Assembly: GCA_000091165.1 (NCBI GenBank)
Contig: FP565575.1
Span: forward strand, 2,580,001 to 2,612,000
Length of the DNA stretch: 32,000 nucleotides
Origin: Candidatus Methylomirabilis oxygeniifera
GTDB taxonomy: Bacteria > Methylomirabilota > Methylomirabilia > Methylomirabilales > Methylomirabilaceae
Direction of reading: 5' to 3'
In this document: piece after piece, positions 10,201-31,691 of the stretch
Position numbering within the stretch: the first letter of the stretch is position 1
Layout of the letters: each line of letters starts with the position of its first letter
Made by a program: the position numbers and the translations under genes
Notes under the pieces: model-generated
Databases searched by the model: none
What the model saw: only the letters and a program-made list of their open reading frames with translations
Told to the model about the DNA's origin: nothing

Positions 10201-10208
10201 CATTCTTC

Positions 10209-11219: not shown

Positions 11220-11279
11220 ACAACCTCCTCCCGTTGCTGAACCCCACACCGTGGGCCTTAATCTTCAGACCCTTCGTTC

Positions 11280-11384: not shown

Positions 11385-11440
11385 TTATTTTGGACAACAG
11401 TAAAGTTGCATAGAGACTTCGCCCTTTATGCTTCGACAAC

Positions 11441-11468
11441 TAGGGCATAGGGTGTAGGGGGTAGGGTG
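11441..11468. repeat. 7-nt-period array (TAGGGNN)x4
   Basis: TAGGGCA TAGGGTG TAGGGGG TAGGGTG. Four G3+ tracts on the plus strand. Confidence 0.9.
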
Positions 11469-11497
11469 TGCGATAAGTGCCGGACATTGGCTTTCCT

Positions 11498-11518
11498 CCC
11501 AATCCCTATACCCTGTCT
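11498..11518. repeat. 7-nt-period array, complement flavour (CCTATAC)
   Basis: CCCAATC CCTATAC CCTGTCT, abutting the xerD stop codon. Can pair with 11441-11468. Confidence 0.75.
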
Positions 11519-12406
11519 TTATGCCCGCGGATGGTAGCGGTTGTAGACCGTCTTCAGGTGCGCCCTGGAGACGTGTGTGTAGATCTGTGTCGTCGAGATA
11601 TCGGCATGACCCAACATCATCTGGACTGCCCGGAGGTCGGCGCCGCGCTCGAGCAGGTGCGTGGCAAATGAATGGCGAAGCGTGTGGGGGGTGACTCGCC
11701 GGTCAATCCCCGCCGCTATCGCATACGCGCGGAGGAGCTTCCAGAAACCTTGGCGCGTCAACGGGTACCCGAAGCGATTGAGGAACAGTGTAGAGCTTGA
11801 CCATCCTCTTTGAAGATATGGCCGTGATGTCTCAAGATACCGGCGAACTGCCGTCTGGGCATCGCGCCCTAACGGCACCACGCGGTCTTTCCCGCCCTTG
11901 CCTTGACAATGCACATAGCCCACCTCCAGGTCTACTTCGGACAGCCGGAGAGTCACCATCTCCGATACGCGCAGGCCGGCCGCGTACAACAGTTCCAGCA
12001 TGGCCTTGTCACGAAGACCCAGAGGATTGCTGGTGAGCGGCGCCGCCAGCAGTCGCTCCACCTCCTCCTGGCTCAGCACGCCGGGCAGACGCACCCAGGG
12101 ACTCGACGACTCGAGGTGCGCGGTAGGATCCTCTTTTACATGATCCTGCGTCAGCAGGTACCGGTATAGACCCCGCAGCGACGAGGTGTGGCGCGAGACC
12201 GTGCGGGGCGCCAGCCCCGCCTCTCGAAGCGTTAAGAGCAGGCGCGCAACCTGCCCGCGGCTGACCTCCCGGAATGAACCGACCCCGCCCTGCTTGAAGT
12301 AGCCGACTATCCGGCGCAGGTCCCTCCCATACGCCGCCAGACTGTTCTCTGCCAGCCCCTTCTCGACCGCCAGATACCTCAAGTAGTCCTCGATCAGATT
12401 GTCCAT
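11519..12406 (-). CDS. xerD: Site-specific tyrosine recombinase XerD
   Basis: 295 aa. N-terminal LAVEKGLAENSLAAYGRDL (XerD-type SAM-like domain). Catalytic region ...LYAAGLRVSE..., HTLRHSFATHLL, LGHADISTTQIYTHV. Confidence 0.8.
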   Translation of the reverse strand: MDNLIEDYLRYLAVEKGLAENSLAAYGRDLRRIVGYFKQGGVGSFREVSRGQVARLLLTLREAGLAPRTVSRHTSSLRGLYRYLLTQDHVKEDPTAHLESSSPWVRLPGVLSQEEVERLLAAPLTSNPLGLRDKAMLELLYAAGLRVSEMVTLRLSEVDLEVGYVHCQGKGGKDRVVPLGRDAQTAVRRYLETSRPYLQRGWSSSTLFLNRFGYPLTRQGFWKLLRAYAIAAGIDRRVTPHTLRHSFATHLLERGADLRAVQMMLGHADISTTQIYTHVSRAHLKTVYNRYHPRA

Positions 12407-13629
12407 GATGAGCCAGGGTGTAGGGTGTAGGGTGTAGGGTGTAGGAGCTGCTCATAAGCTTCAACGAGCTGAATGGCCGAGGCTTCGGCTGTCATCTGCA
12501 TCGCCTTCACCAGGCCCTGCTCGGCGTAGCGAGTCAGGCTTGTCCCATCGTGAAGCAGCGTGAGCAAGCGCCGGATGAAATCGTCCTCGGCGTCATTGGC
12601 CAGCGCTCCATTCGTCCCATCGACGATGAAATCTGAGGTGCCGACAGACCGAACCGCCAGCACAGGGAGCCCGTGCGCCATCGCCTCCAACACAACCAGG
12701 CCCTGGGTCTCTGAAACCGACGGAAAGACAAAAAGGTCCGAAGCCCGATACCAGCAGCCCACAGCCTGATGCGGGACCGGGCCCACGAATCGGACGTGGT
12801 CGGCGACTCCTAGATGGGCAGCCAGTTGCTGCAATGAGTGCTGCTCATCCCCCTCCCCGACTACCAATAGTGTGATGTCGGGCACAACCCGAGTGACGCT
12901 ATGGACCGCCCGCAAGAGCCGCCCGAGATTCTTTTCCCTGGCCAGCCGCCCCACGTACAGGAGGATCGGCCCGACCTCCGACACGCCTAGGCGGCGCCGA
13001 ATCTGGGCCTTCGATTCCTCCGACTCCCCCGGCGGCTCGATCCCTGTTGGAATGACTTCAATGGGAGCGGTGACCCCGCGGTTCCACAGTCGCTCCCGCA
13101 CCCCTGACGTCGGCGCGATGACCAGATCGGCCTGGTTGGCGAAGACGTAGCTCCTGGTCTCCGCGAGCCGGGCAGCCAGGGACGAGATGACCGGCAGGTA
13201 ATGGGCATAATGCTCATACAGTGTATGGTAGGTGAACACAAATGGGATTCCCAGTCGGCGGGCCAGTCGGCGGGCGTAGGGCCCGACAAGAAACGGGTGG
13301 TGGGTGTGGATGATCTGGAGACCAAGACGTGGAATCAGACGATGGAGTCCCACGGCGACGGCTGGGATCGGTAAGGCATAGCGGTGATGGGTCGGCACGC
13401 GCAACGATGGGAACCGGTAGGTATCGGGCTCCACATCTCGGCAGTCGGGGTAACGCGGCGCAAAGACGAAGACCCGATGGCCAAGCCGACGCAGGTGACA
13501 CGCGAATTGTTGAATAGAGACAGCGAGACCGTTGAGCAGTGGCGAGGCGTTGCAGGTGAAAAATCCGATCGTCACCGAAGTTCCGGGTTTCGGGTTTTGC
13601 GTTTCGGGTTGACTCGAAACTCTGGACAC
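12394..13629 (-). CDS. Family 4 glycosyltransferase (GT4, UGDG-like)
   Basis: IGFFT...GV, FVFTYHTLYEHYAHYLP, GRLAREKN, and an E-x7-E region (FPSVSETQGLVVLEAMAHGLPV). The first 18 codons and last ~15 codons are encoded by heptamer arrays. The true start may be the GTG at 13575. The 3' end overlaps xerD by 13 nt. Confidence 0.85.
   Translation of the reverse strand: MSRVSSQPETQNPKPGTSVTIGFFTCNASPLLNGLAVSIQQFACHLRRLGHRVFVFAPRYPDCRDVEPDTYRFPSLRVPTHHRYALPIPAVAVGLHRLIPRLGLQIIHTHHPFLVGPYARRLARRLGIPFVFTYHTLYEHYAHYLPVISSLAARLAETRSYVFANQADLVIAPTSGVRERLWNRGVTAPIEVIPTGIEPPGESEESKAQIRRRLGVSEVGPILLYVGRLAREKNLGRLLRAVHSVTRVVPDITLLVVGEGDEQHSLQQLAAHLGVADHVRFVGPVPHQAVGCWYRASDLFVFPSVSETQGLVVLEAMAHGLPVLAVRSVGTSDFIVDGTNGALANDAEDDFIRRLLTLLHDGTSLTRYAEQGLVKAMQMTAEASAIQLVEAYEQLLHPTPYTLHPGSSWTI
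12415..12445. repeat. Perfect (AGGGTGT)x4.4 tandem array
   Basis: Units at 12415, 12422, 12429 and 12436 plus AGG. Lies inside the last codons of the GT4 ORF and 9 nt upstream of the xerD ATG. Confidence 0.95.
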
Positions 13630-16215: not shown

Positions 16216-17481
16216 CTATAGTCCCCACGACAGGATTTGGAGTGGGCCTTGAAGGGGCGGATTGGAACCGCAATTGTACGTGAGCGTAATATTGCCGTTC
16301 ACGGTGTTGGCGCTCACAAGGCTGCCGGGCGTGTCGAGGGCGTTTTCACCAATGATGAGCCCGACAATGGTCCCAGTGCCGCTGAGATCGAACTGTTCAT
16401 GAGCTGCTATCAGCCCGTTGTAGCCATTGTCTGGGGTGCCTTGGATTTTGACATCACGGCCTGCAATAAACAAGGAATCGTGAACGGTATAGGCGGCGTC
16501 GGCGCCTATCGTCGGATTACCTGTAATCTTAACATCGCCGGTTGCAATCAGGGTAGTTTTCCATGGGTTGGAATCATCGCCTAGAGTGCTTGCCACTTCT
16601 GCGGTTCCTTGGAAGTAGTATGTGCCGTTGCAGGGTGTACCGCTGTTTAATTTCCATGTAGCAAGGGGGGTGTCGGCGGTGTACTTCCATCCGCAAGTGG
16701 AAGTATCTCCGGAATTCAGGGTCTGAAGCAGGGAGCCGCTGCCGTCGCGTACCTCACCCTGACCGTTCGCGTTCACTGTCATCTGATATAGGTGATCCAG
16801 GTGGCCTGCAAGCAGGTTCGTCGCGGCGGCTAGGAAATCGGCCGGATCGATGTGCGGAACTGTTTCTGTCGGTGTGCCGCCCCCGCTGCCGGCACCGACA
16901 GTTGCGCCGCCGGGATTCGAATAAGTGCCGCTGGCGGTGGCGTTGCCGTTAATTGTGACACTGCTGCCATTCAGGGTAAGATTACCGTTGGCATGAACGT
17001 TCCCGCATATCCCACCAGTTGCTAACACGCCTGTGCTGCCCCCAATTGTCATACTCCCGTCGGTCAGGATGGCGTCATTGGAGCGAAAAAAGGTGCTCAT
17101 GACGGCTCTTCGAATCGCTTGAGCCCCTCCAATAGCACTGGCGCCGGTTGACACCACCCTCACCGTGTAATCTCCTGCCTTCTGGTGCTGAACAGTATAG
17201 CTTCCTGCCCCGCCCAACGACGGATTGGATAGGAGAGTCTGAAGGTTGACATTGGCGTTTGTCACGAGGCTCGACGTCGTCCGCAGTGTGTTGAAGGCAT
17301 GCTCCAGACCGGCCTCGGCCAGGAACTGGGCCTGGATGGTGCGCAGATGGTTGGATGCGATCTGCGCCTCAGAGCCGCCGATCGACAGAATGGCAGCCGC
17401 GAGCGCCCCCAGGACGACGAAGGCCATGAGCGCGAGCGGAAGGATCAGCCCCTGATCATTTCCAAACCGCTGATACTTCAT
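16216..17481 (-). CDS. pilX: PilX-N-terminal-domain minor pilus protein with large Gly/Asn/Thr-rich C-terminal domain
   Basis: N-terminus MKYQRFGNDQGLILPLALMAFVVLGALAAAILSIGGSEAQIA resembles the PilX_N type (no G/FTLIE cleavage motif). Last gene of the minor-pilin set. 4-nt ATGA overlap with pilW. Repetitive GNLTLNGSSVTINGNATASG segments. Confidence 0.6.
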   Translation of the reverse strand: MKYQRFGNDQGLILPLALMAFVVLGALAAAILSIGGSEAQIASNHLRTIQAQFLAEAGLEHAFNTLRTTSSLVTNANVNLQTLLSNPSLGGAGSYTVQHQKAGDYTVRVVSTGASAIGGAQAIRRAVMSTFFRSNDAILTDGSMTIGGSTGVLATGGICGNVHANGNLTLNGSSVTINGNATASGTYSNPGGATVGAGSGGGTPTETVPHIDPADFLAAATNLLAGHLDHLYQMTVNANGQGEVRDGSGSLLQTLNSGDTSTCGWKYTADTPLATWKLNSGTPCNGTYYFQGTAEVASTLGDDSNPWKTTLIATGDVKITGNPTIGADAAYTVHDSLFIAGRDVKIQGTPDNGYNGLIAAHEQFDLSGTGTIVGLIIGENALDTPGSLVSANTVNGNITLTYNCGSNPPLQGPLQILSWGL

Positions 17482-20214: not shown

Positions 20215-21597
20215 TCAGTGGGCTTTGGATATGCCGTACTTCTTGACCTTGTACCGAAAGGCGCGAAAGGTGAGATTGAGGAGTTCTGCGGCCCTGCTCT
20301 GGACCCATCCTGAGCGCTCGAGGGCTTGAAGCATCAGATCTTTCTCAAGCTGCGAGACGGTATTTTCCAAGTCGATCCCCTCCGACGGAAGAGTGAAGGA
20401 CCAAGGCGGCTGCTTCTCCCCGTCTTCATTGTCTGCTCTCACCTGTACGGAGATACTGGCCGGCGACAACTGGTCGGTCGTCTCGAGGGCGACAGCCCGT
20501 TCGACGACGTTCTCAAGTTCCCGTACATTGCCAGGCCAGTGATACCGCATCAGAATCTCCATGGCCTCCGAGGAGATTGAGGTCGGCCCCCTCCGCTGTC
20601 GAAGCACGCACTGGGCCAACAGTCTGTTAGCCAGTAACGGGATATCCTCCGTTCGTTCGCGAAGCGGCGGCAGATGGATCGGGATCACATTCAGCCGATA
20701 GAACAGATCCTCGCGAAACGTGCCGTCGGCCATCGCCTTCACCAGATCCTTATTCGTGGCAGCGATGAGGCGCACATCCACCTCCAGGTCCTCTGTCCCG
20801 CCTACCCTCCGGAAGGTCTGCCCCTGCAGGAACCGAAGGAGCTTGACCTGAAGGACCGCGCTCATCTCGCCGATCTCATCCAGGAGTATGCTGCCGCGAT
20901 TCGCGACTTCGAAGAGCCCGGCCTTGTGGGAGATCGCCCCCGTAAATGAGCCTTTGACGTGGCCAAACAGCTCGCTCTCCAACAGTTGCTCAGGTATGGC
21001 GCCGCAGTTGATGGCGAGAAACGGGCGTTCAGCTCGAGAGCTTGCGCAGTGGATGGTTCTGGCGACCAGCTCCTTGCCTGTTCCGCTCTCCCCGGTAATG
21101 AGGACCGTACTATCCAGTTCGGCAATCCGGGTGATCAGTTTATACAGCTCAACCATCTTCGGACTGTGGCCAATGAGCCCGGCGGGCTGCGCCTCCTCTA
21201 TCGCGGCCGGCTGGGAGGTTCCATCATCCGGTCGCCTGACCTTAGCCAGCGCCTTTTCTACGACCAATCGGATTTCGTCGATCCGGAAAGGCTTGGTGAT
21301 ATAGTCATGCGCCCCTAATCGCATGGCCTGAATCGTTGAATCCATGGAGGCGTACGCCGTGACCATGATGACCGGTAGATGCGGATCCGTTTTCCGTATG
21401 CCGGTCAGAAGGCCGATCCCATCCATCTTCGGCATTCGAACATCAGAGATCACCAGATCCGGCGACTGATGCGCAATGAGTTCAAGTGCCCGCTCGCCGT
21501 CAGAGGCTGTGATGACGCGATACCCTTGTTTTTCCAGGAGCACTGTAAGAAACTCGCGTATTCCCTGCTCGTCATCGACGACTAATATCGTTTCCAA
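20215..21597 (-). CDS. pilR: Sigma54-dependent response regulator PilR (NtrC family)
   Basis: REC domain (VVDDEQGIREFL...SDVRMPKMDG), AAA+ domain (GESGTGKE, GSFTGA variant of the GAFTGA motif, ...), C-terminal Fis-type HTH. TTG start with an AAGGAG RBS 7 nt upstream. Confidence 0.9.
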   Translation of the reverse strand: METILVVDDEQGIREFLTVLLEKQGYRVITASDGERALELIAHQSPDLVISDVRMPKMDGIGLLTGIRKTDPHLPVIMVTAYASMDSTIQAMRLGAHDYITKPFRIDEIRLVVEKALAKVRRPDDGTSQPAAIEEAQPAGLIGHSPKMVELYKLITRIAELDSTVLITGESGTGKELVARTIHCASSRAERPFLAINCGAIPEQLLESELFGHVKGSFTGAISHKAGLFEVANRGSILLDEIGEMSAVLQVKLLRFLQGQTFRRVGGTEDLEVDVRLIAATNKDLVKAMADGTFREDLFYRLNVIPIHLPPLRERTEDIPLLANRLLAQCVLRQRRGPTSISSEAMEILMRYHWPGNVRELENVVERAVALETTDQLSPASISVQVRADNEDGEKQPPWSFTLPSEGIDLENTVSQLEKDLMLQALERSGWVQSRAAELLNLTFRAFRYKVKKYGISKAH

Positions 21598-21615
21598 AAC
21601 GTAACTCCTTATTAA

Positions 21616-21685
21616 GTAGATAGACTGTAGGCTATAGGCTGTAGGAGCGCGCTAACAGCCTAATCCCCTACAGCCTATAGCCTAT
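21616..21685. repeat. Composite CTGTAGG/CTATAGG palindromic element, copy 1 (pilS-pilR junction)
   Basis: Perfect 16-bp stem, 21630-21645 with 21667-21682. Shares an 18-mer (21616-21633), a 15-mer (21660-21674) and a 10-mer with the element at 28575-28680. Confidence 0.9.
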
Positions 21686-23355
21686 TCATCCGGAGCCTGT
21701 TTGAGCAAGACGCGAAAGGTTGACCCGCCACCTTCCCGACTGATCACCTCGATCCGGCCGCCGAGATTATCGATGATCTTCTGTGTGATGGTCAGCCCCA
21801 GGCCTGTACCGCCAGGCTTCGTCGTATAGAATGGATCAAAAATTCGTTCGACCTCCTCCGGCGGGATTCCTTGTCCGGTGTCGGTCAGCTCTATCCCCAC
21901 CCAGTTATCGCCGTTTTCAGATCCGTGACGTCGGATAACAAAGCTGAGCCGACCGCCCATCTGCATAGCCTGGATCGCGTTGAGCCCAAGATTCCACAGC
22001 GCCTGTTTTAGCTGATCGGGGTCGCCTGCAGCCATGACCTCCTCGGCCTCACGCTGAATGGAAAAGGTCACCGGGTGAGCGCTGTCGCAGCTCTTTTCCA
22101 AGAGCGAGACCGCCTCTGCAACCAGCGCGACGAGGTTGCACTGCTTCTGTGAGGCCAGGGTCGGCTTCGCGAAATCCAAGAACTGTCCGGTTACCAGCTT
22201 GAGTCGCTCGGCCTCGCGAAGAACGATATCGAGCAGTTGAGGTCTGGCTGTTCCCGCTTCCTTTATCAGTTCGATGCAACCGCTTATCGCGGCCAGAGGA
22301 TTCCTCACTTCATGCGCCAGTCCGGCTGCCAGTTGGCCCGCCGTCGCTAACCGGTCGGCTTGACGGAGCCTGGCCTCTGTCTTTCTCCGCTCCGTCAGAT
22401 CCTGAAAGATGCCCACAAGGCCTATAAGTCTGCCTTCTGATGACTTCAGGGGTGTCAGGTTGATCCCAACCGGGATCGGATGGCCGTCTAGGCCTCGGAT
22501 CGGAAGCTCTTGGGAGCATCCGGCAAAGGCAGACGTGGGGGTGGAGAAGAATACCTCAAGCTCCTTAATCGCTCCAAAAGGGGTCTCTCGCCAGTTCTTG
22601 TCTCGTATCTGCTCTACCGCAATGCCGATGATCTTCTGCGCCCCCCGGTTGAACGATACGATCTTTCCAGTGAGGTCCAGCGTTATGACCCCGCTTGGGA
22701 TATTTTCAACAATGTCCTCGTGAAGGGTCCGGAGATTGCGGAGGTCGATCCGTTGCGCTTCCAGTTCGCGGCCCGTTTCTTTGAGCCGCTCGGCAAGTTG
22801 ACTGCCTAGGAGCGCCACAAGAAAAAAGGTCGCACTATTGACGGAGAACTGGAGGAGCGCGTATGCGGGGTCATGCGTGGTGCTTCCCGTAAAGAGGAAC
22901 GGCGTCTCCTCCGTGAGCCCATAGATCTGAATATTGATCAGCGCTCCGTACAGTATGGTGCCGGCGCTTGCGAGTAACAGGCTCGATCGCCTGGATAGGA
23001 GCACGGATGCGGCCAGGACGGGAAAGATGTAGACAAACGCAAAGACACTCTTGATCCCACCGGTATAGTGTACCAGGGCGGTAGCCAGGACCGCGTCGAT
23101 CCAGAGCTGCAGGCTGCAGAGCTGCCTCAGTCGCATAGTACGGTTCAGTAAGATCGAATAGAGGACGGTGAGAAGGCAGGCGCAGGCGATTAAGACAAAG
23201 AGGGGGGTCAGCGTAAAGGGCGGGTGCTCCCGGATAGCAAGAATACCGGCTGAGCCCAAAAACAGGAACGCCACGAGGAGCCGGAGACCGATCAGCCATT
23301 TGATCTGTCGGCCCAGCGCAACGTCTTCAGACGCAGGCTCGTTTGTGTCCGTCAT
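21682..23355 (-). CDS. pilS: Sensor histidine kinase PilS-like
   Basis: 557 aa. N-terminal block of about 6 TM helices, a PAS-like region, H-box LAHEVRNPLAAI, and a HATPase domain (DTGQGIP, GGTGLGL). Adjacent to pilR. Confidence 0.85.
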   Translation of the reverse strand: MTDTNEPASEDVALGRQIKWLIGLRLLVAFLFLGSAGILAIREHPPFTLTPLFVLIACACLLTVLYSILLNRTMRLRQLCSLQLWIDAVLATALVHYTGGIKSVFAFVYIFPVLAASVLLSRRSSLLLASAGTILYGALINIQIYGLTEETPFLFTGSTTHDPAYALLQFSVNSATFFLVALLGSQLAERLKETGRELEAQRIDLRNLRTLHEDIVENIPSGVITLDLTGKIVSFNRGAQKIIGIAVEQIRDKNWRETPFGAIKELEVFFSTPTSAFAGCSQELPIRGLDGHPIPVGINLTPLKSSEGRLIGLVGIFQDLTERRKTEARLRQADRLATAGQLAAGLAHEVRNPLAAISGCIELIKEAGTARPQLLDIVLREAERLKLVTGQFLDFAKPTLASQKQCNLVALVAEAVSLLEKSCDSAHPVTFSIQREAEEVMAAGDPDQLKQALWNLGLNAIQAMQMGGRLSFVIRRHGSENGDNWVGIELTDTGQGIPPEEVERIFDPFYTTKPGGTGLGLTITQKIIDNLGGRIEVISREGGGSTFRVLLKQAPDE

Positions 23356-23374
23356 AGATTAAAAAGTTCCCTCT

Positions 23375-23464
23375 GTCGTTGCGAGGCAAAGCCGAAGCAA
23401 TCTCACAGTCTTTCAGAATAACGACGCCGAGATTGCCGCGCTCCCTTCGGTCGCTCACAATGAC
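23375..23464. repeat. Long imperfect GC-rich palindrome between pilC and pilS
   Basis: Left arm GTCGTTGCGAGGCAAAGCCGAAGCAATCTC (23375-23404). Right arm GAGATTGCCGCGCTCCCTTCGGTCGCTCACAATGAC (23429-23464). GCAATCTC/GAGATTGC pair perfectly, and further blocks pair with mismatches. Confidence 0.7.
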
Positions 23465-23493
23465 ACATCCCAATGTCTATTGTTAGCCGTCCT

Positions 23494-24708
23494 TCATTTC
23501 CCTATCACCGTCACTAACTTGAAGATGGGCAGATACATTGCCACGATCATACCGCCCACGACGACTCCAAGGAACACCATCAGTATCGGCTCAATCAGGG
23601 CAGTCAGATTTGCGACCGCTTGATCGACCTCGGCATCGTAGAAATCGGCAATCTTCTCCAACATCGAGTCAAGCGACCCGGATTGCTCCCCAACGCTAAT
23701 CATCTGTACGACCATAGGGGGGAAGACCCCGGATATCTTCAATGGGTCGGCAATGGTCTTGCCTTCAGCGATGCTCCCACGGGTCTTCATGATCGCCTCT
23801 TCTGCCACCTTGTTGCCGGTAGTTTTCGCTGTGATATCCAGTCCGTCAAGGATGGGAACCCCGCTGGCGATCAGTGTCCCAAGGGTCCGCGTAAACCGTG
23901 CAACGGCCACCTTTCGAAACAGCGCTCCGAATACCGGAATCCGCAGAAACAATGCATCAATGGCCCTTCTGCCCTTCTCCGTCTTGTACGTGAACCGAAT
24001 ACCGACGACCCCTGCGATAAGGAAGCCGAGGCAGGCCAGGATATACGTTCGCACAAGACGACTTAGCGTCATGACGATCTGAGTCGGCAGGGGAAGCTCG
24101 ACCCCCGACCCCTCGAAAAATCCAGCAAAGACGGGAATCACGAAGATCAGCAAAAAGACGACCACGGCGATAGCAACCACGACGATGGTGCTGGGATAAA
24201 TCAGGGCGCCCTTGACCTTCCGCCGAAGGGTCGTCGCTTTCTCGATGTACACCGCCAGTCGATTCAGGATAGTGTCGAGCATCCCTCCGGCCTCGCCGGC
24301 TTCGACCATATTGGCGTATAGCGGAGTAAATACTGTCGGATGGCGTTTGAGCGCCGTTGTAAAGGTCGACCCCCCCTCCACATCCTCTCTGATCTCAGCG
24401 AGGATGTTCTTGAACCCTTTATTCGGTTGTTGGGATGCTAAGGTGTCGAGACACTGTACTAGGGGGAGTCCGGCATCAATCATGGTGGCAAGCTGACGGG
24501 TGAACACGGCCAGATCCTTATCCTTCACCTTCTTTCCGCCGAATCCGGGAATCTTCAGCTCGATCGCTTTGGGCTGCGGTTTGACGGAAATCGGGAATAT
24601 CCGCTGTTGACGAAGCTGAGCGACTACAGCCTCTGCGGTGGTGGCCTCCATCCGCCCGGCAATCACCCGGCCCGCCTGACTTCGTCCGCGATAAGCAAAC
24701 GTCGGCAT
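23494..24708 (-). CDS. pilC: Type IV pilus platform protein PilC (T2SSF family)
   Basis: 404 aa. Duplicated T2SSF domains and three TM segments. C-terminal EPILMVFLGVVVGGMIVAMYLPIF. Confidence 0.9.
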   Translation of the reverse strand: MPTFAYRGRSQAGRVIAGRMEATTAEAVVAQLRQQRIFPISVKPQPKAIELKIPGFGGKKVKDKDLAVFTRQLATMIDAGLPLVQCLDTLASQQPNKGFKNILAEIREDVEGGSTFTTALKRHPTVFTPLYANMVEAGEAGGMLDTILNRLAVYIEKATTLRRKVKGALIYPSTIVVVAIAVVVFLLIFVIPVFAGFFEGSGVELPLPTQIVMTLSRLVRTYILACLGFLIAGVVGIRFTYKTEKGRRAIDALFLRIPVFGALFRKVAVARFTRTLGTLIASGVPILDGLDITAKTTGNKVAEEAIMKTRGSIAEGKTIADPLKISGVFPPMVVQMISVGEQSGSLDSMLEKIADFYDAEVDQAVANLTALIEPILMVFLGVVVGGMIVAMYLPIFKLVTVIGK

Positions 24709-24714
24709 GCTTTT

Positions 24715-24735
24715 CCTCTACCCTATACCCTAGCC
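24715..24735. repeat. 7-nt-period array (CCTNTAC flavour) spanning the pilT stop / pilC RBS
   Basis: CCTCTAC CCTATAC CCTAGCC. Contains the pilT TAG stop (24723-24725) and, on the minus strand, the purine-rich stretch upstream of the pilC ATG. Confidence 0.75.
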
Positions 24736-25802
24736 TTTTGTGCCCGCTGGACCATCTGGGTCAGTTCGTCGGGCAATGAGCTCCTGAATATCGCCTCATC
24801 CAGCGTGATGCTCCGTTTCAAATAATGTCCAAGGAGCGACTGGTTCATCGTCTGCATCCCGAATTTCTCCTGGCCGGTTTGCATGGCGGAATAGATCTGG
24901 TGGATCTTGTCTTCCCGGATCAGATTGCGGATCGCAGGATTCGGGATCATGATCTCCAGCGCCAACACGCGCCCCTGGCCATTGCTCTTTAGGATAAGCG
25001 CCTGGCAGAGTACCCCCTCCAGAACGAAGGAGAGCTGGGCGCGTATTTGCGGCTGCTGATACGATGGAAAGACGTCGATAATGCGGTGAATGGTTTCCAC
25101 CGCTGAGTTGGTATGCAGCGTCGCAAACGTCAGATGCCCGGTCTCCGCGATGGTGAGGGCCGCAGCAATCGTTTCCTGATCGCGCATCTCCCCGATGAGC
25201 ACCTTGTCGGGATCCTGCCTCAGGATTCTTCTCAGCGCCTCCGCGAATGACTTGGTGTCGGAGTGAACCTCGCGCTGGTTGACGATGCAACTCTTATGCG
25301 GGTGCAGGAATTCGATGGGATCTTCGATGGTCACGATATGCTCATGGTGCTCGGAGTTGATCTTGTCAATCATAGTGGCCAGCGTGGTTGATTTTCCCGA
25401 ACCGGTCGGTCCGGTGACGAGGATCAGTCCCTTCGGCTTCTCGCAGAGATCGGCGACAACCTTCGGCAGACCTAACTCCTCGAAGGCGTGAATCGTGTAC
25501 GGGATGGCCCGGATCGCCATCCCTACGGCTCCCCGCTGCATATAGACATTGGCGCGGAACCTACTCACATCCTTGATTCCGAAGGACAAGTCGAGTTCTT
25601 GTGTTTCTTCAAACTGCCGCTTCTGGGCGTCGGTCAGTACGCTATAGGCCAGGCGTTTTGTTTCCGTCGGAACCAGCGGTGGCACATCCCCGAGAGGCGA
25701 GATCAGGCCGTGCAGGCGCAACATCGGTGGGATGCCGGCGGTCAGGTGAAGATCGGAGGCGCCGCGCTCAACAACCTCCTTCAACATCTCGTGCAGGTCC
25801 AT
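24723..25802 (-). CDS. pilT: Twitching motility retraction ATPase PilT
   Basis: 359 aa. Walker A GPTGSGKSTT, VLIGEMRD, PilT signature AIRNLIREDKIHQI. AGGAGG RBS. Confidence 0.95.
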   Translation of the reverse strand: MDLHEMLKEVVERGASDLHLTAGIPPMLRLHGLISPLGDVPPLVPTETKRLAYSVLTDAQKRQFEETQELDLSFGIKDVSRFRANVYMQRGAVGMAIRAIPYTIHAFEELGLPKVVADLCEKPKGLILVTGPTGSGKSTTLATMIDKINSEHHEHIVTIEDPIEFLHPHKSCIVNQREVHSDTKSFAEALRRILRQDPDKVLIGEMRDQETIAAALTIAETGHLTFATLHTNSAVETIHRIIDVFPSYQQPQIRAQLSFVLEGVLCQALILKSNGQGRVLALEIMIPNPAIRNLIREDKIHQIYSAMQTGQEKFGMQTMNQSLLGHYLKRSITLDEAIFRSSLPDELTQMVQRAQKARV

Positions 25803-25828
25803 ACTTACCTCCTATCGAGATGTGGGGA

Positions 25829-25844
25829 AGCAAGATCAGTGCCA
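25829..25844 (-). promoter_or_regulatory. Sigma54 (-24/-12) promoter upstream of pilT
   Basis: The minus strand reads TGGCACTGATCTTGCT, a full match to TGGCAC-N5-TTGCW. The predicted TSS is about 16 nt upstream of the pilT ATG, leaving the AGGAGG RBS in the leader. Confidence 0.65.
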
Positions 25845-25854
25845 CGTGTTATTG

Positions 25855-25910
25855 GCTATCAGTGGTCAGCAGCGAGCCGAGAAGCTGACAGCTAATAGCT
25901 GATCGCTGCC
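25855..25910. repeat. 7-nt-period array (AGCTGAY flavour) in the pilB-pilT spacer
   Basis: GCTATCA GTGGTCA GCAGCGA GCCGAGA AGCTGAC AGCTAAT AGCTGAT CGCTGCC. Ends 1 nt before the pilB stop codon. Confidence 0.8.
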
Positions 25911-25911
25911 G

Positions 25912-27609
25912 TTAAAAGAGACTGGTGACCCGAACAACCTCTTCGACGGTCGTGACGCCTTCCCGAATCTTTTGCAAACCGCTCTCCCTCAGACTCCTCA
26001 TCCCGTACTTCTCCTGAAGCGTACGGAGCTCACCGACGGAAGCGCCATTCAGGATAGCCTCACGCATCTGTTCATTGAGCAGCACCACCTCATAGAGGCC
26101 GATCCTGCCGCGATAGCCGGTATCACGACAGGCGATACACCCCTTCCCCCGATAGCAGGTCACACTCTTTACCTCCTGCAGGCTGAACCCGATATCCTCC
26201 AGGGTGGAGCTGGGAATCGAGACCTCTGTCCGGCATTCCGCGCAGAGCCGCCGGACCAGACGCTGGGCGAGCAGCAGGTTGAGCGAGGCGCTCACCAGGT
26301 ACGCCGGCACACCCATGCTGATCAGCCGTCCCACTGTACTGAGTGCGTCGTTGGTATGGACCGTACTGAGCACCAGGTGGCCGGTCAGGGCGGCCTTAAT
26401 GGCAATCTCTGCTGTGTCGAAATCGCGGATCTCTCCCACCATAATGATGTCCGGGTCTTGCCGGAGGAATGACCGGAGTAAGGCCGCAAAGGTCAGACCG
26501 ATATCCGACTTGACTTGAGCCTGATTGATCCCGGTCAAGTTGTACTCGATCGGGTCTTCCGCGGTCATGATATTCGTGCCGATACGGTTCAGCCGGTTGA
26601 GCGCCGAATAGAGCGTCGTCGTCTTCCCGCTTCCGGTCGGGCCGGTTACCAGGATCATGCCATACGGGGCGAGGATGGCCTTCTCGAACATGGCGAGCGC
26701 CTCAGGCTCGAACCCGAGCTTAGCCATATCCAATTCGAGGTTCGCGCGGTCCAGGAGTCGCATGACCACCTTCTCGCCGAACAGCGTCGGAACTGTAGAG
26801 ACCCGGAGGTCCAGCTCACGCTCTCGCATCTTGACCTTGATCCGCCCATCCTGCGGCATGCGACGTTCGGCAATGTCCAGTCGAGCCATAATCTTGACGC
26901 GGGACGTCACCGCGGCGTGCAGCGTAAGAGGTGGAGCCATCACCTCATAGAGGACGCCATCGAGCCTGAAGCGAATCCGAAATGCCTTCTCGTACGGCTC
27001 CAGGTGAATATCCGAGGCGCCTTTGTTGATGGCGTCGGTCAGGATGAGATTGACCAGCTTGACCACCGGGGCCTCTTCGGTGGCTCGATAAAGCTCGGCC
27101 AGATCAACTCCCCCCTGATCCGATTCAGCGATCCCCAGCTCTTTTTGCTCAAAGTCTCTGACCAGGCTTCTGGCAAAACCGGCCGTTTCGTAGTACCTGT
27201 TGAGCGCATTCTGGATAGACGTATCCGGAGCGACCATTGGTTGTATGTTGTGACCGGTAATGAATCTGACTTCGTCGATGGCAAAGATATCGGACGGATC
27301 CGCCATAGCCACCGTGAGGGCGCCTCCAGACCGGCCTAGAGGGATGAGCAGGTACTTCCGAGCGACTTCGGCAGGAACGAGCTTGAGGATGGCAGGGTCG
27401 ATCGTCGCCTTGCTGAGATCAACGGGCGGTACGCCATATTGACGCCCCAGAAAGGATGCGATGTCCTCCTCACTGACATATCCGAGCTTAACGAGAGTCG
27501 ATCCGATCCGTCCGCCGGCACTCTTTTGCAATGCAAGGGCGTCATCCAACTGCTCGGACGTGATCAGGCCGGCCCTTACCAGCATCTCGCCCAATCGTCC
27601 AGATGACAT
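25912..27609 (-). CDS. pilB: Type IV pilus assembly (extension) ATPase PilB
   Basis: 565 aa. N-terminal T2SSE_N-like domain, Walker A GPTGSGKTTT, IIMVGEIRD, tetracysteine motif CAECR...CIACRDTGYRGR. Confidence 0.95.
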   Translation of the reverse strand: MSSGRLGEMLVRAGLITSEQLDDALALQKSAGGRIGSTLVKLGYVSEEDIASFLGRQYGVPPVDLSKATIDPAILKLVPAEVARKYLLIPLGRSGGALTVAMADPSDIFAIDEVRFITGHNIQPMVAPDTSIQNALNRYYETAGFARSLVRDFEQKELGIAESDQGGVDLAELYRATEEAPVVKLVNLILTDAINKGASDIHLEPYEKAFRIRFRLDGVLYEVMAPPLTLHAAVTSRVKIMARLDIAERRMPQDGRIKVKMRERELDLRVSTVPTLFGEKVVMRLLDRANLELDMAKLGFEPEALAMFEKAILAPYGMILVTGPTGSGKTTTLYSALNRLNRIGTNIMTAEDPIEYNLTGINQAQVKSDIGLTFAALLRSFLRQDPDIIMVGEIRDFDTAEIAIKAALTGHLVLSTVHTNDALSTVGRLISMGVPAYLVSASLNLLLAQRLVRRLCAECRTEVSIPSSTLEDIGFSLQEVKSVTCYRGKGCIACRDTGYRGRIGLYEVVLLNEQMREAILNGASVGELRTLQEKYGMRSLRESGLQKIREGVTTVEEVVRVTSLF

Positions 27610-27702
27610 GCACCTACCCTTTCTTAACGTGTCTACGGCTGGCGCGTTACGGCCACAACGAACTTTTATATTAGAACGTTAGCATACCATACCTCGAAGA
27701 AC

Positions 27703-28560
27703 TCAGGCAATTGCAGTGACGAGGGCGTGCCGCATAGCCGCCTCCGAAGGTTTGTGCCCGGTCCACAGTTCGAAGGCCAAAGCGCCCTGATAGAGCAACA
27801 TCCCCAACCCACCTATGACCCGACAGCCTCGCCTCTTCGCCTCTCGTAGTAATGCGGTCTCCTGTGGCCGGTAGATCAGATCGTACACCAACGCTCTCGG
27901 CTGAAGGATGTTCGGGTCGATTGGCGGAGGATCTGAAGGGTTGAGGCCAACCGATGTGGTATTGACCACCAAAGCACAGTCTCTTACGATAGCCGGCATC
28001 TGAGGATCGTCAATCGCCAGTCCGGTGGTTGAGGTTCCGATGTTCCGATATACGAACTCGGCCAGCGACCGCGCGCGCGGAGCCGTTCGGTTGACGATGA
28101 CGATCGGTTCGGCGCCGGCTTCCGCTAAGCTCCAGGCCACGGCCCGCGCTGCCCCGCCTGCTCCAAGGATCACAGAAGGCTTGCCGCGCGGCAGAAAATT
28201 CGCCTCCTCATGGAGTGAACGGAGAAACCCCAGCCCGTCAGTATTGGCGCCGAGCAGATGTCCGTCTCTGGCTACGACCGTATTGACTGCGCCCACAGCG
28301 GTGGCTTCTGGAGTCAGGGTGTCGACCAGCGCGAAGGCCTGCTCCTTATGGGGAACTGTAACATTTGCGCCCCCGAAATTTTCCATCCCGCGAAGCGACT
28401 CGAATGCGGCGGGTAAGCCGGCGGATTGCACCCGCCATGGAATATAGAGGCCATCGATTCCGGCTGCCTGGAGCGCGGCATTCTGCATGACCGGCGACAG
28501 GCTATGCGCCACAGGATCGCCGAAGAGGATAAACAGCTTTGCTGCAGCCGTAAACTTCAT
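27703..28560 (-). CDS. aroE: Shikimate 5-dehydrogenase
   Basis: 285 aa. FGDPVAHSLSPVMQNAA, GANVTVPHK, NTDGLGF, GAGGAARAV. Confidence 0.9.
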   Translation of the reverse strand: MKFTAAAKLFILFGDPVAHSLSPVMQNAALQAAGIDGLYIPWRVQSAGLPAAFESLRGMENFGGANVTVPHKEQAFALVDTLTPEATAVGAVNTVVARDGHLLGANTDGLGFLRSLHEEANFLPRGKPSVILGAGGAARAVAWSLAEAGAEPIVIVNRTAPRARSLAEFVYRNIGTSTTGLAIDDPQMPAIVRDCALVVNTTSVGLNPSDPPPIDPNILQPRALVYDLIYRPQETALLREAKRRGCRVIGGLGMLLYQGALAFELWTGHKPSEAAMRHALVTAIA

Positions 28561-28574
28561 TTGTAATTACTCAG

Positions 28575-28680
28575 GTAGATAGACTGTAGGCTGTTAGTGC
28601 GTCGTATTCGGAAAATGCCTGGTGCGTTCCTACAGCCTAACAGCCTACAGTCTAATCCCCTACAGCTACAGTCTATCTGC
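28575..28680. repeat. Composite CTGTAGG palindromic element, copy 2 (glnD-aroE junction)
   Basis: AGATAGACTGTAG (28577-28589) pairs with CTACAGTCTATCT (28666-28678). Alternatively, CTGTAGGCTGTTAG (28584-28597) pairs with CTAACAGCCTACAG (28637-28650). Shares an 18-mer, a 15-mer and a 10-mer with copy 1. Confidence 0.9.
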
Positions 28681-31479
28681 CTAATTGAATCCCTCCGCGA
28701 GCACGCGCTCCAACTCGATCCCGATCTGTGCCCTTCGCCCTTCATCAATCAGCTTGCTCCCGTCCTTATTGGTTACATAGAAGACGTCTACCACCTGCTC
28801 GGCCTCAGTCGTGATCTTCGCAGAGCGTATATCGACCTCAAGCTGCGATAGGGTGCTGGTGATGAGGTAGAGAAGCCCCAATCTGTCCCGTGTCCGAATA
28901 TCCAGAACGGTATAGGCTTGGGAGACCAGGTTGTCAAATTCTACCTTGATCGGGAAGACTGTACCCTGCTGAATCGGCCTGACCAGGACCTCCTTCCTAC
29001 GACTCTTGATCAGGTCGTGAACAGCGACTGTGCCCGTGAGGACCTCTTGCAGATCCGCAACGACCCGATCCCAGACGGCCGGGTCTTCGATGGCTACGCC
29101 GCGGCCGTTGTCGACCCTGAAGTGCCGGATCACCATCCCGCTAGCCAGTGTGAAAATCTGGGCGCTCAGGATATTCATCCCGCTTGCGGTGAGCGTCCCT
29201 ACAACCTGCGCGAACCGCCCGTGGCGGCCACAGGCGCAGACGGTAAACTCGGAATAGCCGGCCAACGGAAACGCCGCCCACTGGCTGGCCGCCTCTTCAC
29301 CCCGTTGTACGCGCGCAATGACGCGCATGTGCGAGGCGATCTTATGGGGTGGAATCGTCAGCAGGTACCGCGTTGGGGCCTCTTGCAGGTGCCTTTTCAC
29401 CGCCTCCGCGCCGAACTCCGGTGAGAGTTCCTGGGTAAGCTGGGAGGTGATCCGTTCGGCGCGAGCCAGATCGTCCTCGCCCTCCGGAATGCCCCGGATG
29501 AGGACGGTATGGGTCTTGATGTACAGTTCCCACAGCAATGTGCCTTTCCACTCGGTCCAGACGCCGGGCCCGACCGCCTTGATGTCGGCGAAGGTGAGCA
29601 GGTACAGCATTTTCAACCGATCGAGCGTCTGCACCTTTTTGGCAAAATCGATGATGATGGCCTCATCGTCCAGGTCCAGGCGTTGAGCGATATGTGACAT
29701 CTCCAGATGACGCGCCACCAGGAAGACAACGGTATCGGCATCCGGCTCAGGGATTCCCATCCGGTGAAGAATTGCCTCAACGATGGAGGCGCTCTTGGAT
29801 GCGTGGTCAGCCCCCTCCCCCTTACCGATATCGTGGAGCAGAAGCGCCAATCGAAGAATTTCCAGCCGCTTCGCATCCGATGCCAGCGAACGAAACTCTT
29901 CGCCGTACAATCGTGACACCTCATCCAGGTGCTCGAGTGTCTCGATGGCCATGAAGGTATGTTCGTCCACGGTGTACCGATGGTAGAAATCGAATTGGAT
30001 CAGACGGGTCAGCTTGGCGAACTCCGGAATATAGGCCCCAAGTACGCCAAGTTCATGCATGCTCCGAAGTGTGGCGGCCACCCCCTTCGGCTCTCGCAGG
30101 ACGGTCAGGAAAAAGCCAAGGGCCCGGCTCGAGCGTCGTACCCCCTCATCGATGAAATGCGTATCGGCCCTGATAGCGTCCTGGATCTCCTGGCTCAACG
30201 TGTACCCCATCTGCTGCGCATACCAGAAAACCTTCAGCAACCGGACGGGGTCATCCTGAAACAGGCCCCGATGTTTTGGCGACACGTATATGCACCGATC
30301 GATTTCTGTTAAATCATCGCCGATATCGCGAGCCTTCAGCCTCCGTATCACCCTCTCCACCTGCGACCTCCCTTGCGTGCAGCGCGAGATCACCTGCGCC
30401 GATAACTGCGAGATATCCTTTGCAGCCAGATAATAGCGCTGCATGAACTGTTCTACCCCGTACGAACGAGCCGTATCCAGAAACCCAAGGTTGGCCGCCA
30501 CCTGCTCTTGCACGGAGAGCGAGAGTACGTCGTTCTTGCCCCGGTGCAGGTAATGAAGTTCATTCCGCAGGCGGAGCACGAAATCCAGGGCCAGGTCCCA
30601 CCGTTCGCGCTCCTCCTGTCCAAGTAGCCCTTTTTGCGCCAATTCAGACGACGTACCGACTCGCTGAGTGATCCTGGCAATACAAAGGGCAGCGTGAAGA
30701 TCTCTCAGGCCGCCGGGACCTTCCTTGATGTGCGGCTCCTGCACATAGATCGATGTGCCGTACCGGTAGTGGCGTTGATGTAACTCCTCGATCTTTTGCT
30801 TGACGAGGGTGTCGGCGTGCTTGTACAAGACCGATCGTCCCAATTTCGCGCTGAACGCCTGATAGATTGCCGGGTCGCCGGCGAGGTGTCGGGCTTCTAT
30901 CATCGAGCTGCAAGAGGGCAGGTCCGTTCGAGCCATCCGTACACAGTCATCAATAGAGCGGCAACAATGTCCTACGACGAACCCCACGTCCCAGAGAGTA
31001 CTCAACACCGGATGGAGGATCGTGTCCAGATAGGTATCGGCCCTTCGGGGGTACACAAACATAAGATCGACGTCGGAGGCCGGATTCATCTCCCGCCGGC
31101 CATAGCCGCCCAGAGCGATCAGCGCGCACCCGTCGCTGCGCCGCCTCAACGTCGGATCACAGGCTGTTTCTGACAGTTGAAAGAGTGAGGTGACGACCGC
31201 ATCAGTAAGTGTGGCGATGGATCGAACTACCGCCTGCCCGGTTCCCCCATTCCGATGGATCTCAAGAATCCGGGCCCGCTCATCGGCGATGAACCCTCTG
31301 AGGACCGAAATGAGACCGTTGGCCGCATGGCCGCCTTGCAGCAGGGAGTGCAGAGTGCCGGCCAGCGTTGAACACTCTACGGAGGCCGTGGGCGTATCGC
31401 CGGTAGGACTCGCGGCATTCGCCCCTCGGTGTCGCAGCAATGCGAAACGGCCCTTTGTGATGACCTGAAATCGTTTCAT
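28681..31479 (-). CDS. glnD: [Protein-PII] uridylyltransferase / uridylyl-removing enzyme GlnD
   Basis: About 932 aa. Nucleotidyltransferase region (ALGGYGRREMNPASDVDLMF), HD domain (LLLHDIGKG), two C-terminal ACT-like repeats. I prefer the ATG at 31479 over the TTG at 31485. Confidence 0.9.
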   Translation of the reverse strand: MKRFQVITKGRFALLRHRGANAASPTGDTPTASVECSTLAGTLHSLLQGGHAANGLISVLRGFIADERARILEIHRNGGTGQAVVRSIATLTDAVVTSLFQLSETACDPTLRRRSDGCALIALGGYGRREMNPASDVDLMFVYPRRADTYLDTILHPVLSTLWDVGFVVGHCCRSIDDCVRMARTDLPSCSSMIEARHLAGDPAIYQAFSAKLGRSVLYKHADTLVKQKIEELHQRHYRYGTSIYVQEPHIKEGPGGLRDLHAALCIARITQRVGTSSELAQKGLLGQEERERWDLALDFVLRLRNELHYLHRGKNDVLSLSVQEQVAANLGFLDTARSYGVEQFMQRYYLAAKDISQLSAQVISRCTQGRSQVERVIRRLKARDIGDDLTEIDRCIYVSPKHRGLFQDDPVRLLKVFWYAQQMGYTLSQEIQDAIRADTHFIDEGVRRSSRALGFFLTVLREPKGVAATLRSMHELGVLGAYIPEFAKLTRLIQFDFYHRYTVDEHTFMAIETLEHLDEVSRLYGEEFRSLASDAKRLEILRLALLLHDIGKGEGADHASKSASIVEAILHRMGIPEPDADTVVFLVARHLEMSHIAQRLDLDDEAIIIDFAKKVQTLDRLKMLYLLTFADIKAVGPGVWTEWKGTLLWELYIKTHTVLIRGIPEGEDDLARAERITSQLTQELSPEFGAEAVKRHLQEAPTRYLLTIPPHKIASHMRVIARVQRGEEAASQWAAFPLAGYSEFTVCACGRHGRFAQVVGTLTASGMNILSAQIFTLASGMVIRHFRVDNGRGVAIEDPAVWDRVVADLQEVLTGTVAVHDLIKSRRKEVLVRPIQQGTVFPIKVEFDNLVSQAYTVLDIRTRDRLGLLYLITSTLSQLEVDIRSAKITTEAEQVVDVFYVTNKDGSKLIDEGRRAQIGIELERVLAEGFN

Positions 31480-31504
31480 TGTCAATCCGTACTGGCGTTC
31501 TGAG

Positions 31505-31560
31505 CGTCGAATTGCGAGTTTTGTGTTTCGAGTTCTTCACTCAACACTCAACACTTGCAG
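31505..31560. repeat. 7-nt-period array, TTTCGAG then CTCAACA flavours
   Basis: CGTCGAA TTGCGAG TTTTGTG TTTCGAG TTCTTCA CTCAACA CTCAACA CTTGCAG, in the glnD upstream region. Confidence 0.85.
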
Positions 31561-31610
31561 TCTGCTGTTAGTATAGGCGGGCCTGCCGGACAGGGTCAAG
31601 GTGTATGTAA

Positions 31611-31638
31611 AGCCGTCAGCCATCAGCACTCAGCCGTC
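31611..31638. repeat. 7-nt-period array (AGCCRTC)x4
   Basis: AGCCGTC AGCCATC AGCACTC AGCCGTC. Confidence 0.9.
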
Positions 31639-31670
31639 AACTCCGGACAAAACCGTGGGCACACCAGAAA

Positions 31671-31691
31671 AGCTGACAGTTGATAGCTTCC
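31671..31691. repeat. 7-nt-period array, complementary flavour (AGCTGAC)
   Basis: AGCTGAC AGTTGAT AGCTTCC. An imperfect reverse complement of 31611-31638. Confidence 0.75.

Follow-up and report, generated by a model that had tools for sequence, protein, structure and literature searches.

What occupies the short space between glnD and aroE in Candidatus Methylomirabilis oxygeniifera, and why does much of the same sequence stand between the unrelated genes pilS and pilR? Both junctions lie within one stretch of 32,000 nucleotides (contig FP565575.1 of assembly GCA_000091165.1, positions 2,580,001 to 2,612,000), here called the window, and coordinates are those of the window. An initial annotation, drawn from the sequence alone, treated the 2 spacers as copies of one composite element. 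With a probability of roughly 0.8, we read the glnD-aroE spacer (copy 2; the pilS-pilR spacer is copy 1) as a decayed copy from a family of small DNA transposable elements.

The 3 blocks that the initial annotation had seen in common are exact, 28575-28592 with 21616-21633 (GTAGATAGACTGTAGGCT), 28652-28666 with 21660-21674, and 28637-28646 with 21652-21661. The first of them, an 18-mer, is found in the window only at 21616 and 28575, even with up to 3 mismatches, and in 0 of 100 shuffles. The 15-mer alone is weaker evidence, with at least 2 matches at up to 3 mismatches in 11 of 100 shuffles. The 2 stems proposed for copy 2, 28577-28589 with 28666-28678 and 28584-28597 with 28637-28650, are both perfectly complementary, the inner one really being 18 bp long (28580-28597 with 28637-28654). 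Neither the shared blocks nor the stop/start placement nor the stems are expected by chance.

A dispersed family with terminal repeats

The genome collection was scanned with GYAGATAGACTGTAGS, giving at least 120 matches, and genomes with one match are expected by chance for this pattern; the metagenomes were scanned with a 19-mer, giving at least 120 loci. To the question raised by the initial annotation, whether the blocks go beyond the 2 sites, the answer is that the terminal 16-mer occupies at least 10 loci in Ca. Methylomirabilis sp. bin48 and is found in other phyla as well. There are at least 2 loci in an M. oxygeniifera metagenome-assembled genome (MAG), at least 12 in a MAG labelled Nitrospira, and at least 2 to 3 each in several Desulfobacterota, one Spirochaetales MAG and one 'Patescibacteria' MAG, with KSB1 represented also. 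Where a genome has multiple loci, the match always lies within a longer terminus, GTAACTRCTCAG-GTAGATAGACTGTAGG-CnTTTAGRCTGTAGG, and the opposite element end reads ...CTAACAGCCTTCAGCCTACAGCCTAAACACCTGAGTAGTTAC.

The family has a terminal inverted repeat (TIR) that is perfect over 14 bp, GTAACTACTCAGGT / ACCTGAGTAGTTAC, with subterminal heptamer arrays. Intact members of about 450-500 bp are built as TIR, TAGACTG/TAGGCTG heptamers, one open reading frame (ORF) of 118 aa, CAGCCTA heptamers, and inverted TIR, and there are internally deleted members of 65-230 bp resembling the miniature transposable elements with inverted repeats that are known as MITEs. A target-site duplication (TSD) of 8 bp flanks many of them. 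In the genome set, the 2 flanks agree at 6 or more of 8 positions in 10 of 18 two-ended elements versus 2 of 420 mismatched control pairs; in the metagenome set, among the matches listed, 14 of 75 elements agree at 8 of 8 and 10 of 75 at 7 of 8. Perfect examples are TAATTAAG, AGCGCTTT, CGGCAGGC, CATTGAAC, and AAAAGATA. The features of a MITE family are thus present, namely TIRs, TSDs, and short, multi-copy, dispersed units free of transposase. The initial annotation had called the element dispersed, possibly mobile, and MITE-like or similar to repetitive extragenic palindromic (REP) sequences; the TIRs, the 8-bp TSDs, and a set of empty and filled sites bear out all of this except the likeness to REP sequences.

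The TIR pairs that lie 1-3.5 kb apart in L042, L061, L166, L191, L231, and L249 were considered as ends of a transposase-bearing partner and rejected, as they enclose host genes only (ABC ATPase, MlaE, acyl-CoA dehydrogenase, carboxyl transferase, response regulator, rpe, a MazF-like toxin-antitoxin pair, and rplN). Element pairs bracketing single host genes or modules are L231 322-1311(-), L249 1919-2595, L191 785-1807(-), and L166 1678-3159(-), their contents being a MazF/PemK-like toxin with antitoxin, rplN, rpe, and a response regulator. Paired copies around a host gene could in principle mobilise the gene they enclose.

The MAG Nitrospira sp. Bin_21_1 (SBAY01) has at least 12 copies of a low-GC subfamily, about 195 nt long, with the same terminus and a different, decayed interior:

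Nitrospira Bin_21_1 copies: L004, L009, L014, L015, L025, L040, L044, L047, L063, L069, L082, L093

Copies of the Methylomirabilis type are also seen on contigs L036, L108, and L117 of a 'Patescibacteria group bacterium' MAG (DATMXF01), and a protein with the same label, P0003, is an AroE sharing 93% identity with the M. oxyfera protein. These contigs and this protein are probably mis-binned or mislabelled NC10 DNA.

The parent is a four-helix-bundle cassette

The bin48 copies, 130-182 nt long, have ATGCGAGACCATACCAAGCTCAGAGCGTTTGAACTGGCCGACGAAG following the left heptamers and ...GTTCTGGGCGCCTTGATTCGGTCCATGCGCAACGACTAA preceding the right heptamers. Full-length elements join pieces of the bin48 type into a single ORF of 118-119 aa, and the ORF is intact in the following:

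L112, KSB1 MAG, 458 nt: intact ORF
L154, 446 nt: intact ORF, with the sequence blocks of the Methylomirabilis copies
L237, 433-903, 471 nt: intact ORF and perfect TSD AAAAGATA

The last of these is matched by L234 1358-1585(-), 228 nt, which is the same locus in another sample with identical flanks and the same TSD. The pair are alleles at one locus, and hence the shorter one arose by internal deletion in place. Short copies are therefore deletion derivatives of the four-helix-bundle cassette.

The cassette ORF matches PF05635 (23S rRNA-intervening sequence protein) at 3e-31 and TIGR02436 (four helix bundle protein) at 1e-29, and the nearest solved structure is Xanthomonas XCC0516, PDB 2GSC (1.7e-23), a protein that has been cited as pentameric S23p (PMC4990558). 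There are about 5,000 close homologues. Four intact ones (L135, L136, L137, L141) were examined, and all 4 have the same heptamers on both sides and lie in sense orientation inside operons, their settings being after efp, between genes for a Bac_transf (bacterial sugar transferase) protein and an FAD-binding-domain protein, between those for an S24 peptidase and an IMS polymerase, and between those for the 2 transketolase subunits. Among intact ORFs, the ratio of nonsynonymous to synonymous substitution (dN/dS) is 0.07-0.15, with dS from 0.5 to saturation, and the element ends are identical over at least 19 nt. The cassette ORF is under purifying selection, and from the low dN/dS together with the identical ends it follows that protein and termini are both constrained. 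PADLOC gave no match for the cassette ORF, so a link to defence systems is unsupported. In the literature searched, we found no paper linking PF05635 genes to TIRs, TSDs, or heptamers, none on this family, which is no proof of novelty, and none on MITEs of Methylomirabilis.

The family is MITE-like, with an intervening sequence (IVS) protein cassette as parent in place of an insertion sequence. One idea, which we consider distinctly unlikely, is that the cassette is a self-contained mobile element and that its four-helix-bundle protein has a part in moving it; the protein could attach to the subterminal heptamers and bring in a nuclease, recombinase, or polymerase of the host. In that case the classical rRNA IVSs would be special-case insertions of such a transposon class. 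Avd, which helps the reverse transcriptase of diversity-generating retroelements (DGRs), could by analogy be a model for such self-mobilisation. The cassette ORF is weakly related to it (NF033474, 5e-5), and PF22296 bAvd is listed for many homologues, although the score is 23.5 bits against a cut-off of 80 bits, and neither a reverse transcriptase nor template/variable repeats lie beside the copies examined.

Anatomy of the window copies

Copy 2 could be aligned to the full-length L154 element, and a profile built from 11 Methylomirabilis copies finds it by nhmmer in 2 pieces, 28654-28599 (-) with E = 1e-7 and 28564-28598 (+) with E = 8e-6. Its features, all on the minus strand, with the basis of each in brackets, are as follows:

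28563-28680: copy 2, the decayed element in full, which takes up the glnD-aroE spacer (nhmmer and L154 alignment)
28563-28576: outer TIR, plus strand GTAATTACTCAGGT, ending 2 nt short of the aroE ATG on the gene strand (13 of 14 matches to the consensus GTAACTACTCAGGT)
28577-28597: heptamer array of the 3' arm, gene strand ...CTAACAGCCTACAGTCTATCT (positions 416-446 of the full-length element, 26/31 identity)
28598-28628: remnant of the four-helix-bundle ORF, gene strand AACGCACCAGGCATTTTCCGAATACGACGCA (L154 ORF at about nt 324-347; CCAGGCGTTTCCGAATGCGACGC block of bin48 copies L050 and L117)
28629-28680: heptamer array of the 5' arm directly after the glnD TAG, containing the block CTGTAGGGGATTAG shared with copy 1 (sequence comparison and Tandem Repeats Finder, TRF)
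28681-28683: glnD stop TAG (TAG in the element carriers, the window and L131; TAA in L133 and L134, which are without the element)
28558-28560: aroE start ATG (gene call)

On the gene strand, the order is TAG, GCAGATAGACTGTAG-CTGTAGGGGATTAGACTGTAGGCTGTTAGGCTGTAGG, AACGCACCAGGCATTTTCCGAATACGACGCA, CTAACAGCCTACAGTCTATCT, ACCTGAGTAATTAC, and AA ATG, that is, left heptamers, an ORF fragment of about 25 nt, right heptamers, and right TIR, with the left TIR gone. The start of the element proposed by the initial annotation, right after the glnD stop, holds, as the TAG (CTA at 28681-28683) abuts base 28680. The end that had been placed at 28575, 14 nt before the aroE ATG, is wrong; the element runs 12 nt further, to 28563, and stops 2 nt before the ATG.

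Copy 1 consists of heptamer arms and a TIR remnant only, with perfect 18-bp arms at 21628-21645 and 21667-21684:

21601-21684, minus strand: copy 1, a reduced element filling the pilS-pilR spacer, the first heptamer including the pilS TAG at 21682-21684 (nhmmer 21609-21654, E = 1.4e-6)
21601-21611, minus strand: right TIR remnant, gene strand TAAGGAGTTAC, 3 nt before the TTG (9 of 11 matches to TGAGTAGTTAC)

The AAGGAG Shine-Dalgarno sequence of pilR (21605-21610) lies in this remnant, the TTG at 21597 following only 3 nt beyond it, and the L133 orthologue has ACCTGAGCTGAGGAGTTAC, GTG, and ATG at the same right end. At pilR, the TIR of copy 1 has been turned into a ribosome-binding site. The 2 copies had been described as identically placed. 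Both do start at the upstream TAG, but the start codon at copy 1 is this TTG, 18 nt from the boundary drawn earlier.

In both window copies, the upstream TAG is itself the first triplet of a heptamer of TAGGCTG type, the orientation is sense within the operon, and only 2-3 nt separate the end from the start codon that follows. By TRF, arrays of period 7 lie at 21620-21645, 21667-21685, and 28629-28654, so the copies are also tandem heptamer repeats, and their unit, TAGGCTG/CAGCCTA, differs from those described as short tandemly repeated repetitive (STRR) sequences 1-3 and from TAACTGA (PMC4679880). Among all loci examined, a non-canonical block, GTAGGGGATTAG, is found only in the 2 window copies and their orthologues, which marks them as a local sub-lineage or as exchanged sequence. 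Both have lost the left TIR and are probably immobile relics.

The genes flanking both spacers are all on the minus strand. The identities given to glnD and aroE are sound, with GlnD (28681-31485) matching TIGR01693 at 674 bits and AroE (27703-28560) matching TIGR00507 at 249 bits in NCBIfam. In the pair called pilS/pilR, the first gene encodes a PAS histidine kinase (21682-23355) and the second a sigma-54 response regulator (20215-21597); the pair sits within a pilB-pilT-pilC...pilA cluster in which PilB, PilT, and PilC are confirmed by NCBIfam.

Filled, empty, and rewritten junctions in relatives

The initial annotation had pointed to empty sites in relatives as a check, and at pilS-pilR both filled and empty orthologous junctions exist. 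The window, L131 (AroE identity 93%), and L133 (AroE identity 83%) have an element at this junction; M. lanthanidiphila L132, in which the TAG and the GTG start overlap, and L134, with a spacer of 21 nt, have none.

At the glnD-aroE junction, the element of L131 is a related one that lacks the ORF remnant; L133 (8431-8501) has an unrelated hairpin of 4 GCTGATA units ending at the ATG; L134 (8411-8501) has 3 repeats of AACCAGACC; and L132, whose contig begins 196 nt upstream of aroE, has GACGCnn repeats (1-196) just before the ATG. Each Methylomirabilis relative thus has a different heptamer 'dialect' here, which argues that the site upstream of aroE has been repeatedly re-occupied or rewritten. 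Apart from the stop codon, which is TAG with the element and TAA without it, the last residues of GlnD are conserved. Several short-read contigs stop 50-90 nt upstream of aroE, within the spacer, as expected of a repeat.

L131, the closest relative, has 2 extra family copies, 11143-11285 and 16878-17005, in the pilB-pilT spacer and behind pilR. At pilB-pilT, a different hairpin is present in the window, and the profile search finds no family copy after pilR in the window. The difference indicates recent turnover.

Placement between stop and start codons

Empty sites were rebuilt by removing the element and one TSD copy, and ORFs were then called. Intergenic positions account for 48 of 78 reconstructed insertion points versus 18% of random positions, and of the other points many fall no more than 12 nt from where an ORF ends. 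In 41 of 46 scorable cases (41:5), the downstream gene runs in the direction of the element ORF. Many copies directly adjoin a stop or start codon, and for about 13 a co-oriented stop codon stands upstream at a distance of 12 nt or less. The TSDs ACCGTAGC, AAACGTAG, and TAATTAAG contain that stop codon, and others contain the downstream start. L108, with TSD GAATGGCG, has the placement of copy 2, its TIR lying 2 nt before the start codon (TIR, GA, ATG). Of the positional rule that the initial annotation had proposed, the strong bias stands and a fixed distance does not, as distances run from 0 to hundreds of nucleotides.

We infer that most of the positional bias is explained by selection in compact operons, where an insertion would survive only if it fell among the few non-coding bases that separate a stop from the next start; a preference for A/T-rich targets may add to it. 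Within 21 nt, TAGGCTG arrays offer a TAG in each of the three frames, so that an insertion at a gene end costs a few codons at most and the annotated stop becomes the first heptamer. The alternative, which we hold to be somewhat unlikely, is that the insertion machinery itself makes the bias by targeting stop/start junctions or A/T-rich ribosome-binding regions. The co-orientation with the downstream gene fits such targeting, as do perfect, hence young, TSDs that are rich in A/T or include a stop or start codon (TAATTAAG, AAACGTAG, CATTGAAC, AAAAGATA, AAATCATA, ATGATTTT, GAATGGCG); other perfect TSDs, however, are G/C-rich (CGGCAGGC, ATCCCCGA, AGCGCTTT, GGAGACAC), the spread of start-codon distances does not suit it, and the same picture results if purifying selection in compact genomes removes insertions from within genes.

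With the bias strong and the blocks found far beyond the window, the two-copy interpretation of the initial annotation, which was to fall if the blocks occurred at only 2 sites or lay at random, is supported and essentially right.

The copies as RNA

The 2 spacer RNAs fold at -49.9 and -43.4 kcal/mol, with z of about -6. Neither spacer has a promoter-like or terminator-like site, and a reading of them as promoter or terminator was ruled out on that ground. The copies would be co-transcribed with their operons and fold into hairpins of about 18-20 perfect bp, which, by analogy with rRNA IVSs and Correia elements, would act as a processing site of RNase III type or as a barrier of mRNA stability between cistrons. 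The right end of the element would supply the translation-initiation region of the downstream gene, which at pilR has evolved into AAGGAG.

Another explanation, which we consider improbable, is a dedicated cis-regulatory RNA of glnD-aroE and pilS-pilR (an attenuator, riboswitch, protein-binding leader, or terminator), selected for that function and no mobile relic. In its favour, the structures are very stable, the pilS-pilR element is kept in 3 species over an aroE identity of 83-100%, its two arms in the window show matching changes (TATAG / CTATA) when compared with L131, and its right end forms the pilR ribosome-binding site. Covariation is uninformative as evidence of RNA structure here, for the inverted repeats of a transposon already impose complementarity on the arms. 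Against a regulatory RNA, Rfam has nothing at gathering thresholds across the window and, at E ≤ 1 over 21400-28900, only a spurious mir-132 (E = 0.14); no T-run or terminator-like site is present; the same sequence stands beside unrelated genes; and among relatives, unrelated hairpins replace the glnD-aroE spacer in L133 and L134, while L132 and L134 have no pilS-pilR spacer. An inserted copy that was later exapted would agree with the mobile-element explanation.

Weighing the mobile-element explanation

Several points weigh against the window spacers being copies of a mobile family. They have neither a left TIR nor a TSD, and with these lost their insertion event is not reconstructable. Among 261 loci, no transposase or insertion sequence with the same TIRs was found, and so the autonomous partner of a MITE is missing from that set, in which the four-helix-bundle cassette is the sole full-length form. 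The copy numbers of the family are lower bounds, and the gene calls under the positional statistics are crude ORF calls. Finally, the fold of copy 2 hides a weak GAG upstream of aroE in a stem, and with this GAG sequestered the effect on translation could equally be negative.

Local growth has also to be considered, in which the spacers would be heptamer tandem arrays expanded by slippage, of the cyanobacterial STRR or Beggiatoaceae TAACTGA type, with the 2 copies alike by convergence. Many window spacers do have period-7 arrays of other sequence (1381-1407, 10209-10238, 11448-11469, 12415-12445, 25880-25911, 31538-31555, 31611-31639), the heptamer type at the orthologous glnD-aroE junction differs by species, and TAACTGA repeats too lie just upstream of start codons (PMC4679880). 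We nevertheless think this very improbable, since copy 2 holds non-heptamer blocks, the 14-bp TIR and the ORF fragment, in the order of the family, TSDs flank family members, and the window copies have the non-canonical block GTAGGGGATTAG in common. Slippage may reshape the arms after insertion.

REP sequences and their paired form, REPIN, are imperfect palindromes of 20-40 nt without TSDs, linked to a RAYT (IS200/IS605-like tyrosine) transposase; although the copies here are likewise intergenic, palindromic, multi-copy, and often just after stop codons, spread by a RAYT is barely credible for units of 65-500 bp derived from an ORF-bearing cassette, with 14-bp TIRs and 8-bp TSDs that REP/REPIN systems do not make, and no RAYT gene was seen in the copy flanks examined, where no systematic search was made.

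Other heptamer arrays in the window

Most other window spacers have period-7 repeats, often as inverted pairs (1212-1429, 5859-5906, 10209-10238, 11440-11518, 25803-25911, 31530-31690), with the units GCTGAnn/nnTCAGC, TAGGGTG, AACCCCT, CACTCAA, and AGCCGTC. By TRF, 8 of the 9 period-7 arrays of the window are in non-coding or gene-boundary sequence. A tblastn search of the rest of the window for four-helix-bundle ORF remnants with 41 family proteins gave only noise (E > 0.05), and these other hairpins are accordingly not tied to the cassette. A perfect (AGGGTGT)x4.4 array at 12415-12445 precedes the minus-strand ATG at 12406 by 8 nt, lies inside the 3' end of ORF 12394-13629, and may have been absorbed into its coding tail or may supply its stop. 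Between convergent genes, at 10153-10209, a strong hairpin that is GC-rich and bordered by A and T runs (AAAAAAGCCCCCGCG...CGCGGGGGCTTTTCTC) looks like a bidirectional intrinsic terminator, and GCTGnnn heptamers follow directly after it.

Relation to known systems

One close resemblance of the family is to the S23p-encoding IVSs of 23S rRNA, of Leptospira, Coxiella, and Xanthomonas type (PMC4990558). Those are small selfish inserts of about 430-760 nt with complementary borders and a long stem, and their one ORF likewise belongs to the four-helix-bundle family PF05635; stem and ORF are both found in the present family. They are tolerated as transcribed parts of a host RNA, as the present copies would be, and the distribution of both is sporadic and horizontally spread. 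The IVS of Coxiella has been described as selfish, with complementary sequences at its borders and an S23p ORF, and as cleaved by RNase III, and both a 'remnant of transposition' and a 'mobile element whose ORF aids mobility' are listed among ideas on IVSs (PMC4990558). Unlike IVSs, the window copies, and every other copy with flanks examined, lie between or beside protein-coding genes and not in helices 9/25/45. The 14-bp TIRs, heptamer arrays, and 8-bp TSDs, compared by description, were not found described for IVSs in the papers searched.

With the MITEs of operons (Correia of Neisseria, ERIC, and Chunjie of Geobacter; PMC10969869, PMC3184786), the family has in common short, multi-copy units with TIRs and direct repeats (DRs), size variation by internal deletion, truncated copies without TIRs or DRs, insertion into operons without breaking them, and stable RNA hairpins. 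The TIRs of Correia elements are RNase III substrates (PMC10969869). The parent differs, being a cassette with a four-helix-bundle ORF only and not a transposase-bearing insertion sequence. Chunjie is described as having 21-bp TIRs and 9-bp DRs and as A+T-rich (PMC3184786), and so is a different family.

The cyanobacterial STRR sequences and the TAACTGA repeats of Beggiatoaceae, Cyanobacteria, and Bacteroidetes (PMC4679880) are like the present arrays in having period 7, in being almost exclusively intergenic, mostly 'forward', and a few nucleotides upstream of start codons, in being common to distant phyla, and in showing indels in 7-nt steps. The TAACTGA repeats are described as direct repeats without a frame of TIRs, TSDs, and ORF, whereas the present units differ in sequence (TAGGCTG/CAGCCTA) and form inverted pairs inside an element so bounded.

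Significance

The window copies are ordinary relics, and it is their family that is of interest. Heptamer repeats near start codons, hairpins of operon MITEs, and orphan IVS-protein genes were treated separately before, and are here one element type with the signatures of transposition. For the annotation of Methylomirabilis and of numerous MAGs from sediment, the family accounts for contigs that break off at operon junctions, for stop codons that come from repeats, and for ribosome-binding sites derived from repeats, and it is a marker for mis-binned contigs. It also bears on the origin and mobility of IVS/S23p elements, a question since the early 1990s, for which copies with an intact ORF and a perfect TSD, such as L237, are concrete test substrates. 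If the protein does have a part in moving its cassette, and rRNA IVSs are special-case insertions, PF05635 would have a function and the origin of IVSs would be explained.

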